UHGV virus genome: UHGV-0209617
Length of the DNA: 64,000 bases
Reading direction: 5' to 3' (one strand)
From: a virus
The notes below the pieces were generated by a model. That model did no database searches. It saw only the letters and a list, made by a program, of their open reading frames with translations, and had not been told where the DNA came from. The first letter of the stretch is position 1. Each line of letters starts with the position of its first letter. Position numbers and translations under genes: made by a program. This document shows positions 1 to 2,600 of this stretch, piece by piece.

Positions 1-324
1 ATGGTGCAGAATCTTGAAGGAATGGGATTTACGGTAGTTCCCTTTGGACAGGGCTTTAAGGATATGAACCTGCCTACCAAGGAACTTATGAAGCTGACAT
101 TGGAAAAAAGAATAGCTCATGGAGGCCACCCGGTGCTTAGATGGATGATGGATAACATCTTCATAAAAACGGATCCGGCGGGAAATATAAAGCCGGACAA
201 AGAAAAATCCACAGAGAAGATTGACGGTGTGGTAGCAACCATAATGGCACTGGACCGAGCAATCCGCTGTGGATTGGATGATGATGAAAGCGTGTATGAT
301 GAACGTGGGATATTACTGTTGTAA
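1..324 (+). CDS. Phage terminase large subunit, C-terminal part (5' end lies upstream of window)
   Basis: 107 aa ORF aligns along its whole length with the C-terminus of the intact terminase at 38620-40227 (MVQNLEGMGFTVVPFGQG..GHPVLRWM..DKEKSTEKIDGV..DRAIRCGL); roughly 80% nucleotide identity by eye. Confidence 0.8.
   Translation: MVQNLEGMGFTVVPFGQGFKDMNLPTKELMKLTLEKRIAHGGHPVLRWMMDNIFIKTDPAGNIKPDKEKSTEKIDGVVATIMALDRAIRCGLDDDESVYDERGILLL
108..324 (+). repeat. Left copy of ~215 bp imperfect direct repeat (terminase 3' end), partner at 1048-1260
   Basis: 108-324 and 1048-1260 align at roughly 93% identity by eye; they flank the toxin-antitoxin cassette at 313-946. Confidence 0.8.
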
Positions 325-696
325 GGGTGGCATATCTGAAAGAGAAACCTTAGCATAAGCACCATTCTTTTTATCTTCTGGATGTGGTTCAAGTCCAATC
401 ACTGTAATAGCTTTATGGTCAGGTCCATACACCCAATACATACGCATGGCGCGGCTTGTTTTGTTTTCTAAATAAGATTGCCATACTTTCATTCCATATC
501 TTTTTGTAAGATCAGATATTTCATGGGTGTTCAAACTAGGATAAAATTGGTTTTCCGAGAGCAGCTTCATGGTTTTACCCCATTTTTTATAGAGTTGAAC
601 GTCTGACTTTGATATTGTGCCTTCAGCATTTGATTTTTTGAGTCTGGTCCATAAAGCAAGTATTTCAGGAATACCCAAGTGAATAGAAAATTTCAT
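313..696 (-). CDS. Putative toxin of a type II toxin-antitoxin pair (family not recognised)
   Basis: 127 aa from internal ATG at 696 (MKFSIHLG..); start lies 4 nt downstream of the stop of the AbrB-type gene on the same strand; family not identifiable by eye. Confidence 0.4.
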   Translation of the reverse strand: MKFSIHLGIPEILALWTRLKKSNAEGTISKSDVQLYKKWGKTMKLLSENQFYPSLNTHEISDLTKRYGMKVWQSYLENKTSRAMRMYWVYGPDHKAITVIGLEPHPEDKKNGAYAKVSLSDMPPLQQ

Positions 697-700
697 AATA

Positions 701-946
701 TCAGAACTCCGATAAATCAATTGCTTCAGAAACATTTCCCACAGTTATATTTTTTACAGCATTATCCATCATTTTTAGGGTATTTGCGGATATTTCTGCA
801 GGAACCACAAGCTCACGAGGTTCAAGAAGAATGAAGCCATTATCATATTCCTTAACATTGTAGTACTCATGAGAGGCACCTCTTAATGTAAGGCGTTTTT
901 TGGCATCAAGATGTGCATTATAGTTTGTTCTTATAGCAGCTTCCAT
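701..946 (-). CDS. AbrB/SpoVT (MazE-like) family antitoxin
   Basis: 81 aa; AbrB/SpoVT-like swapped-hairpin signature (KKRLTLRGASHEYYNVKEYDNGFILLEPREL); immediately upstream of and coupled to the 313-696 ORF. Confidence 0.55.
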   Translation of the reverse strand: MEAAIRTNYNAHLDAKKRLTLRGASHEYYNVKEYDNGFILLEPRELVVPAEISANTLKMMDNAVKNITVGNVSEAIDLSEF

Positions 947-1047
947 AATTTTTACCTCCGTTCATAATGGTGGGATTTCCCACTGTTGTATATATCTATT
1001 TTAAACTAAAAAGAAATTTTTTTCAAGAGTAAAATGTAGAGAAACGA

Positions 1048-1260
1048 ATAGTTCATGGAGGCCACCCGGTGCTTAGATGGATGATGGATAATATTTTCAT
1101 AAAAACGGATCCAGCGGGAAATATAAAACCGGACAAAGAAAAATCCACAGAGAAGATTAACGGTGTGGTAGCAACCATAATGGCGCTAGACCGTGCAATC
1201 CGCTGTGGATTGGATAATAGTGAAAGTGTTTATGATGAGCGTGGAATATTACTTATCTGA
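1048..1260 (+). pseudogene. Terminase large subunit C-terminal fragment (right copy of direct repeat)
   Basis: ORF 1069-1260 (63 aa, LRWMMDNIFIKTDPAGNIKPDKEKSTEKINGVVATIMALDRAIRCGL) duplicates the last ~70 codons of terminase; no N-terminal body. Confidence 0.7.
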
Positions 1261-1644
1261 AAAAGAATGATGCTCAGATGGGTTCATATAAAGGGTAGCC
1301 GTTTTGACACCATATTTCTTTACGGTGCATCGTTCTTTCTGGGAAGTGTATCCAAGTACATACTTGAACACATAGCCCATTAAAGCACCCATGCACTGGC
1401 TTTCACTAGGAGAAAATTTAAAGTCGGGTGCTGGATTCATGGTTCGTTCATATATCAGAAGAAGTGATTTTACCGGGGGAATCTCAAGGTCATTGGCAAA
1501 TACAATGTTTCCCATATGTACTGGATTAGCAATTGTGTTAATACAGAAATTCCACAAAGCACCAGAATTAACAAAAGGGGTTGCAGTTTTATAGGTAGTA
1601 GAGAAATCGGAATTGATTGCTTTTATAATTTCGCTGGTATTCAT
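1249..1644 (-). CDS. Hypothetical protein (cargo between terminase fragment and portal fragment)
   Basis: 131 aa ORF with a GAGG motif upstream of the ATG; no recognisable motif. Confidence 0.35.
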   Translation of the reverse strand: MNTSEIIKAINSDFSTTYKTATPFVNSGALWNFCINTIANPVHMGNIVFANDLEIPPVKSLLLIYERTMNPAPDFKFSPSESQCMGALMGYVFKYVLGYTSQKERCTVKKYGVKTATLYMNPSEHHSFSDK

Positions 1645-1777
1645 ATTAAAACCTCATAAAAATATAACAGACAAAATATTGATGGTTTTATTATAAGCGT
1701 TTACATTGCCATTGTCAATAGTGAACATACAAAAAAATAATGGTTTAATAAGATTGATATAAAGGAGGCATCAGCCT

Positions 1778-2269
1778 ATGAATTTCTTTTCTAAACTGTT
1801 CCGTTCAGGGGACAAGCCGACAAATTTTTTATCTACCCATTGGCCGTTCCTTTGGGGGCAGACCATATCAGGGCGGTCGGTAAATGACAGAACCGCTATG
1901 CAGGTTACAGCTGTTTATGCCTGTGTCAGAATTCTGGCAGAAGCTATAGCTGGGTTGCCGCTTAATGTGTATCAGTACCGCCCAGATGGTAGCAAGGAAA
2001 AACTTTACAGCCATCCGCTTTACCATCTTCTGCATGATGAGCCAAATCCTGAAATGACCAGCTTCATTTTTAGGGAAACCATGATGAGCCATCTTCTGCT
2101 CCATGGTAATGCCTATGCCCAGATTATTCGTAATGGCAGGGGAGAGGTTGTGGCTTTGTACCCATTGCTTCCAAACAAGATGGATGTGAGCCGGGATAAC
2201 TCTGGAAGACTTTACTACACCTACACCAGAAATTCTGACGAGCCAAATGGCAGACAGAATTATGTTTGA
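1778..2269 (+). pseudogene. Phage portal protein, N-terminal fragment (truncated)
   Basis: 163 aa aligns with the first ~160 residues of the intact portal at 40947-42224 (MN.F.KLF.S.DKPTN..QVTAVYACVRILAE.IAGLPL.VY.Y...HDEPNP.MTSFIFRET.MSHLLL.GNAYAQIIR) then ends in unrelated sequence; the intact portal is 425 aa. Confidence 0.7.
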
Positions 2270-2600
2270 ACCACATAATACCAGTGCTATCTTCTCTGAA
2301 GTTGTATTAGCACGTTTTGCTTTTGTTTTATGGGTAGCCCCAACAGCAATTAATAGAGAACTTTTTATACATCCAGTGAGTGAGGCGTTATGCATCTATT
2401 TCATATATAGCCAATATTCAAGATAAATATCTACTGCTTCAGCGGCAGATACTTTAGTTGGTTGTACGGCAATAGAACAGCCAATAAAACTGCAATAGTA
2501 AGAAGAAAAATAGTAAAAATTTTTTTCGATGTAATCATCTAAAAAAGTATATTATCTGTCATTTGGAATACTTATTCATTAGAAGAATGTTTTCAGAAAA

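Follow-up and report, generated by a model that had tools for sequence, protein, structure and literature searches.

The first 2270 bases of a 64,000-nucleotide (nt) stretch of viral DNA (UHGV virus genome UHGV-0209617; the whole stretch is referred to as the window) are a remnant of about 2.3 kb of an HK97-type prophage packaging module. It extends from the 3' end of the gene for the large terminase subunit (terL) to the 5' part of the portal gene. Between the two, a candidate toxin-antitoxin (TA) operon is followed by an orphan terL fragment and one further gene. The overall account, i.e., a relic with an accessory-gene slot, a TA-like cassette and a terL repeat that is the scar of an illegitimate recombination stacking two cassettes, is considered likely. 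It builds on direct observations: the anatomy of the locus, the fold of one product, synteny, a survey of junctions, selection signatures and both parental layouts. The features of the relic are as follows.

1-324, plus strand: truncated terL 3' end, last 107 residues, nuclease domain (PF20441, E-value 2e-15)
103-324, plus strand: repeat copy A, terL 3' end including the stop codon TAA (322-324)
313-696, minus strand: candidate toxin, 127 amino acids (aa), RelE/ParE/HigB-superfamily fold, unannotated sequence family
701-946, minus strand: candidate antitoxin, 81 aa, 4 nt upstream of the toxin start
970-983, no strand: palindrome GTGGGAttTCCCAC, downstream of the -10 element of the pair and ahead of its Shine-Dalgarno sequence
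998-1026, minus strand: sigma-70-like promoter of the pair, TTGAAA-17-TAAAAT, 10/12 match
1039-1044, plus strand: recombination joint, 6-nt microhomology GAGAAA, from the alignment of the window with contig L032, together with copy A
1039-1260, plus strand: copy B, orphan terL 3' fragment of 222 nt, last 72 codons, in frame through the stop TGA (1258-1260)
1249-1644, minus strand: accessory gene, 131 aa, cargo of the second slot, no family match
1690-1718, minus strand: sigma-70 promoter-like site with perfect consensus, TTGACA-17-TATAAT, 12/12 match, upstream of the 131-aa gene
1778-2269, plus strand: 5' third of the portal gene, 163 codons (PF04860, 1.6e-40), homology ending at about 2259

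The relic packaging module

An earlier note on this DNA had described a decayed copy at the window start, and the relic is indeed truly decayed at both ends, since homology to terL stops upstream and homology to the portal gene stops downstream. The upstream loss is seen on a contig identical to the window (L120; contigs used for comparison carry the prefix L), which reaches 367 nt further upstream (L120 6645-7011). On this contig, homology to terL breaks off near codon 430 and homology to the portal gene near codon 161. Read by eye, the DNA adjoining the cut terL (L120 6645-7011) encodes what looks like the C-terminal end of an IS3-family transposase OrfB. A full-length portal protein (418 aa) is encoded on the sister contigs L001-L003. 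The window itself holds a second, apparently complete prophage (see below), to which the relic is related: by BLAST, the portal fragment is 79% identical at the nucleotide level to the intact portal gene at 41044-41300, and for both terL copies, the identity to the intact gene (39904-40217) is 77-79% (copy A 79%). The nearest GenBank relatives by nucleotide identity include, among the matches listed, Candidatus Heliusvirales phages. A search of window positions 1-3000 against Rfam gave no match. The coordinates of the three small genes (313-696, 701-946 and 1249-1644) are as given in the earlier note and agree with the list of open reading frames (ORFs).

The candidate toxin-antitoxin pair

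The 81-aa and 127-aa genes are small and co-oriented, with the antitoxin stop codon at 701-703 and the toxin ATG at 696. Shine-Dalgarno-like motifs and a single upstream promoter-like site are present, and the 127-aa ORF converges on terL, with the last 12 nt of the ORF overlapping the terL end, stop codon included. The promoter region is conserved up to the joint in L032, a Selenomonadaceae contig that is 87-93% identical to the window. The palindrome is also conserved in L032 and, judged from its sequence and position, is a candidate operator.

The earlier note had called the product of 313-696 a putative toxin, which agrees with its RelE/ParE fold; the closest structure is HigB from Streptococcus pneumoniae (PDB 6af3). 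The protein belongs to a large, unannotated family with more than 1600 homologues, which form 726 clusters at 50% identity and occur in 317 of about 186,000 species genomes. At the sequence level, no match to PF05016, PF06296, PF05973, PF15738 or the equivalent NCBIfam models was found at E-values up to 10, and 25 divergent family members gave only single sub-threshold matches (Gp49, 0.0047; ParE_toxin, 0.16). Across members that are 30-50% identical, the residues H58, S74, R85, W88, H105 and P106 are invariant or nearly so. Compared to RelE/ParE/HigB/YoeB toxins, the window protein is longer; its helices are extended, an additional helix is present at 61-67, and its partner matches no known antitoxin family. 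The toxin annotated as RelE/ParE in the Streptococcus suis phage YS43 is unrelated to it.

Strong evidence links the two genes into a single module. In all 80 species genomes retrieved by way of the toxin, its homologue has the partner directly upstream. For the 81-aa protein, 226 homologues were found, all of them unannotated. The hosts span several phyla (Selenomonadaceae, Lachnospiraceae, Gardnerella, Fusobacterium, Treponema), and the pair occurs in phage junctions as well as in plainly chromosomal, non-phage settings. Both genes are under purifying selection: the ratio of non-synonymous to synonymous substitution rates (dN/dS) against the 87-93% identical relative is 0.14 for the toxin and 0.17 for the antitoxin. 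In gut Lachnospiraceae from mouse and human (L022-L026, 4253-4624), the toxin homologue is an intact ORF of 123 aa which was not called in the source annotation, so that the antitoxin appears orphaned in those gene tables.

The cassette is a candidate bicistronic type II TA-like operon, consisting of a candidate toxin and a candidate antitoxin, and the pair is a new sequence family inside a known toxin superfamily. Toxicity and target we infer: the 127-aa protein is probably RelE-like, acting as a ribosome-dependent mRNA endonuclease.

The earlier note had further assigned the 81-aa protein to the AbrB type, and for this part no support was obtained. None of 38 family members matches PF04014, and no match was found in Pfam, NCBIfam or PHROGs; a PDB profile search and a fold search with the 81-aa protein gave no support either. 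When the family was aligned by hhalign to MazE and AbrB sequences, only an 11-column motif resulted, at a probability of 1.6%. The swapped-hairpin beta-barrel of AbrB, MazE and SpoVT is an obligate dimer. The protein may be of the AbrB type.

Some results speak against a TA module. The 81-, 127- and 131-aa proteins have no match in Pfam, NCBIfam, PHROGs, PADLOC or among PDB sequences, and family profiles of the 81- and 127-aa proteins searched against the PDB returned nothing relevant. The AlphaFold2 model of the 81-aa monomer, with a beta-rich N-terminal half and a C-terminal helix, is poor, having a predicted local distance difference test score of 56.6. The pair could instead be another kind of two-gene module that does not arrest growth, such as a regulator or an anti-defence factor, in which the RelE/ParE fold is reused without nuclease activity. 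The lack of matches to curated toxin families or PADLOC would be in line with this, as would the length of the 127-aa protein, which exceeds classical RelE by 30-40 residues. We nevertheless regard it as unlikely: the partner is small and located upstream at a spacing of 4 nt, the pairing is strict (80 of 80 genomes), the distribution is patchy and horizontal, H58, R85 and H105 are invariant or near-invariant even between members of 30-50% identity, and the pair persists in relics that are otherwise eroded.

The repeat and the recombination joint

The direct repeat (103-317 versus 1039-1253) covers 215 nt with an identity of 92% according to a repeat search (91.6% by BLAST, E-value 3e-85). The earlier note had placed a repeat of about 215 bp at 108-324 and 1048-1260, which holds to within about 10 nt. 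An identity much lower than estimated had been named beforehand as a refuting point; the measured value is the 92% just given. Copies A and B differ at 22 of 222 positions. Of the 20 differing codons (one being the stop codon), 15 are synonymous and 5 non-synonymous, with a dN/dS of 0.11 and a proportion of synonymous differences (pS) of 0.30. Given this ratio and the fact that copy B is open up to its stop codon, the copies are taken as two functional terL alleles from different phages, and not as a local duplication with subsequent decay.

The joint is visible in the alignment with L032. The window and L032 are near-identical over the stretch that begins with the antitoxin ATG, includes the promoter and ends at GAGAAA (1039-1044). 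Beyond GAGAAA, L032 enters the portal ribosome-binding site and ATG, while the window enters terL codons (E-K-R-I). Both parental layouts are found. The arrangement terL'-toxin-antitoxin-portal', devoid of copy B, occurs in L032-L036, which include small Selenomonas and Mitsuokella relics. The arrangement terL-[128-aa homologue]-portal, devoid of the pair, occurs in the oral phage contigs L122 and L124-126. Copy B adjoins the pair in all of L001-L008 and in L120.

One illegitimate crossover at the microhomology is the simplest account. One parent would have been organised as terL-pair-portal, the other as terL-131aa-portal. At GAGAAA, a short distance before the ribosome-binding site of its portal gene, the first would have crossed into the interior of the other's terL. 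The resulting terL-pair-'terL-131aa-portal would have kept both cargos, with 72 terL codons of the recipient left between them. Later, the second slot would have been swapped without scars, and in some strains a third, HEPN-like cassette of 548 aa would have been stacked behind another terL fragment. The 548-aa gene is found in L001, L002, L006 and L008, located behind a terL fragment of 119 nt. Its product (L001 6819-8465) has a coiled-coil middle part, a C-terminal RNIFAH motif (Rx4H) and weak matches to HEPN_Apea and CARF_HEPN, and is possibly an abortive-infection nuclease. In L006, the gene is split into two ORFs.

The earlier note had proposed cassette exchange by way of the flanking repeat. 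Recombination between phages is retained from this proposal; the repeat, however, does not represent exchange arms but is a scar, left when two cassettes were stacked by a single join. No terL fragments were found in the 77 IMG/VR junctions and the 10 GenBank junctions screened (see below), which makes them a peculiarity of this lineage and not a general exchange mechanism. Illegitimate-recombination joints in tailed phages are known as Hendrix-type mosaicism. Shared with it are the novel joint at a short microhomology, the leftover gene fragment and module boundaries at gene ends. What sets the present case apart is that one can still see the two parental layouts as well as the untrimmed scar, and that an event of this kind took place twice in one lineage.

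Not all details suit a simple cross of two parents. The microhomology is only 6 nt and is based on one relative (L032). The terL end of L032 is equidistant from copies A and B (87.8% each), so that the donor itself is not pinned down by L032. In L003, the terL fragment in the place of copy B is more similar to copy A (96% versus 93%), which points to further conversion or recombination beyond a two-parent model. The contigs L122-126 gave no BLASTN match to copy A or B, only to the intact terL.

The pair and copy A might also be a small integrative cassette which entered the terL 3' end by a site-specific or Campbell-type single crossover of a circular intermediate. As in elements that target tRNA genes, such a cassette would bring a replacement 3' end and displace the original one (copy B). 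The order of intact gene, element-borne cargo and displaced 3' end is of the attL/attR type, and the same type of structure recurs with the HEPN-like cassette and its 119-nt fragment. Against this, no recombinase gene is present in or beside the cassette (none in 1-2270), no repeat is found other than the terL homology, whose joint lies at 6 nt of microhomology, the terL fragments are not of equal length (215 versus 119 nt), and relatives that have the pair next to the portal gene without copy B match the window right up to the joint. Furthermore, a terL fragment is missing from 77 other junctions, filled or empty. We therefore consider an integrative cassette improbable. Even less is to be said for an in-place tandem duplication of the terL end followed by decay of copy B. 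The two copies do lie near each other as direct repeats of the same orientation, as such a duplication would leave them, but their divergence is mainly synonymous, copy B is in frame to its stop, and copy B has downstream cargo of its own which matches a separate phage layout; this origin is very improbable. A chimeric assembly of two strains present together, as might be suspected for a sequence that is probably metagenome-derived, has next to no probability as the source of the repeat, since the identical layout is found in at least 10 independent assemblies (ENA, NCBI metagenome-assembled genomes, Logan), including contigs of 60-220 kb.

The terminase-portal junction in related phages

The earlier note had proposed that the terminase-portal junction is a cargo hotspot and had called for a survey of relatives, which bears this out. 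From IMG/VR, 80 contigs were drawn by portal alignment and six were added from an earlier portal query; both gene ends could be located in 77. The gap is at most 136 nt and thus empty in 31 of these (about 40%), while it is filled in the other 46 (312-1982 nt). The filled gaps contain 66 ORFs, which fall into 50 clusters. According to Pfam, the cargo includes Phd/YefM, ParE, Gp49 (HigB) with HTH_3, an AIPR abortive-infection protein (3e-50), HSDR_N_2, HNH endonucleases, isochorismatase, HxlR, RibD_C, phosphoadenosine phosphosulfate (PAPS) reductase and TPR proteins, as well as TM2 and zinc-ribbon membrane proteins. Roughly half of the cargo has no family assignment.

GenBank was surveyed by BLASTN, and 60 records were listed of 141 matched. 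In about 19 of the 60 listed records, the span from the terL end to the portal start is 710-820 bp, which leaves no room for cargo; about 35 have longer spans, the overall range being about 710 to 1970 bp. Cargo was confirmed in the records themselves: Phd-Doc occupies the junction in the Streptococcus agalactiae phages Javan3, 20, 40, 55 and 57, an antitoxin with Doc that of S. suis phiNJ3, and DinJ-Doc that of S. equi Javan191. In S. suis YS43, a pair annotated as RelE/ParE and antitoxin is found, in S. constellatus phages a MerR regulator, and in the Erysipelothrix phage phi1605 an aminoglycoside nucleotidyltransferase (ant). Gut Candidatus Heliusvirales phages carry PAPS reductase, amidohydrolase and hypothetical proteins.

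Relatives thus differ at this junction: some have no cargo there, others have cargo of unrelated kinds (TA pairs, AIPR and HEPN-like proteins, but also enzymes, regulators, membrane proteins and many unassigned genes). The earlier statement that different TA cassettes take the same position also holds, with Phd-Doc in the intact prophage, the RelE/ParE-fold pair in the relic and further pairs in relatives. This supports the terL-portal gap as a genuine, widely used accessory-gene slot in this phage lineage.

As a phenomenon, such a hotspot is known, and the junction adds one more example, representing ordinary phage mosaicism. Accessory genes of prophages have classically been described as "morons". 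Like these and the P2/P4 hotspots, the junction is a fixed site between core genes, either empty or filled with unrelated cargo, some of it of the defence type, which has its own promoter-like sites. It differs from the P2/P4 hotspots by its position (terL-portal) and by its lineage (HK97-type phages of Firmicutes). Its cargo is mixed (TA and abortive-infection genes, HNH, metabolic enzymes, regulators, a resistance gene) and does not consist mainly of known defence systems. Prophage hotspots as a general idea are established for P2/P4 (Rousset et al. 2022, PMC9122126). Within a limited literature search, no paper was found that names the terL-portal junction a hotspot, and the Heliusvirales paper is silent on toxins, hotspots and accessory regions.

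The intact sister phage on L003 (6623-9388) has a TerL of 921 aa, owing to an inserted, intein-like LAGLIDADG/Hom_end segment, and TerL of the Erysipelothrix phage phi1605 is also annotated as intein-containing. Cuts in terL by a homing endonuclease could promote co-conversion of the adjacent cargo slot.

The 131-aa gene and the second slot

In sister loci, the slot between copy B and the portal gene holds either the 131-aa gene, a YbjN-like gene, or a pair of RelE (PF06296) and an HTH_3/MqsA-like protein. The flanks are 96-98% identical across these loci. The boundaries are sharp, namely the terL stop codon on one side and the portal ribosome-binding site just before the portal start on the other, and scars are absent. 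True, scar-free cassette replacement thus occurs in this second slot.

The 131-aa gene has a 74% identical homologue (128 aa), which is the only gene between terL and portal in the oral phage contigs L122 and L124-126. The 131-aa protein and the 157-aa cargo of L011 are unrelated. Further homologues are found on L028, a contig of the M. gnavus type, in a region resembling integrative and conjugative elements (ICE) or plasmids, where RepA_N and Phage_rep_org_N genes flank them and ParA/ParB as well as a type IV secretion system coupling protein are encoded nearby. In view of this ICE/plasmid-like region, the gene circulates among mobile elements of different kinds.

The intact prophage and neighbouring regions

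The packaging module of the second prophage is made up of the following genes.

38560-40227, plus strand: intact terL (PF20441, PF03354)
40279/40288-40530, plus strand: Phd antitoxin (phrog_2194, 9e-25; PF02604, 2.8e-5, at 24.2 bits under the Pfam cut-off of 29.8)
40527-40901, plus strand: Doc toxin (PF02661, 5e-18; TIGR01550, 2e-20; phrog_577, 1.6e-36)
40947-42224, plus strand: intact portal gene (PF04860, 2.7e-128)

A Doc/Fic-domain toxin preceded by a Phd/YefM antitoxin (40279-40901) is thus located between terminase and portal, as the earlier note had stated, and the assignment is confirmed by Pfam, NCBIfam and PHROG matches. The pair at the same junction of S. agalactiae phage Javan3 is 42% identical in Doc and 67% in the Phd N-terminus. 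Streptococcus prophages (Javan3, phiNJ3 and others) have the same order, terL-Phd-Doc-portal-ClpP, with homologous proteins, but they come from another host group and have one more small ORF before the portal gene.

The prophage is contained in a block (about 20000-60000) with a GC content of 43-49%, compared to 31-39% in the flanks. Just upstream of the intact terL, two genes may code for an Amidoligase_2-like protein (36633-37598) and a GGACT-like protein (37696-38154). These names were given by position and size in analogy to L003, which carries Amidoligase_2 and GGACT genes in the place corresponding to 36633-38154. A LlaJI-type restriction-modification operon (12700-18378) sits just upstream of the rise in GC from about 37% to about 47%. 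It codes for two DNA methyltransferases (one N6_Mtase/Eco57I/TaqI_C, one of the D12 class), an AAA_5 (McrB-like) protein and an RE_LlaJI endonuclease. Between this operon and the portal stub lies a run of low-GC ORFs (31-36%; 2601-11441), several of which look secreted or membrane-bound; they have no Pfam match, except for a DUF6273/Sel1 protein at 10560-11441.

Persistence of the relic and implications

Among strains, the prophage has been eroded to varying degrees, while the pair and copy B were always retained. In L004, they are all that remains of the prophage. Four Selenomonas and Mitsuokella species retain, next to the pair, no more than stubs of terL and portal. TA modules are kept in cryptic prophages and other elements, where they stabilise neighbouring DNA, for example relBE in Qin and mosAT in SXT. 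Here, too, the prophage has disappeared apart from the pair and the DNA directly next to it; stabilisation, however, is in our case something that we infer only from the erosion pattern. This pattern fits a TA module that resists its own deletion or that is selected as a defence. By analogy to other prophage TA modules, the most likely role of the pair is to stabilise its own DNA or to abort superinfection, which would explain why the pair and its immediate flanks outlasted the prophage. It is tempting to speculate, though we consider it rather doubtful, that the terL fragments and the portal stub could act as homology arms. The relic would then be a landing pad or reservoir for cassettes of infecting phages, with the TA pair guarding the pad, and bacterium and phages would share a maintained site of cassette exchange.

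These findings do not overturn the current understanding and are of moderate interest overall, being new cases of known kinds of system and phenomenon. They add a gene pair which occurs in more than 300 bacterial species and is labelled "hypothetical" by all sources. They also provide an unusually complete record of phage mosaic formation, in which parental layouts, joint and scar are all visible and which is repeated in sister strains. The junction is an easily searched locus in a very widespread lineage of gut and oral phages, and it allows cheap mining for new TA, abortive-infection and anti-defence genes.

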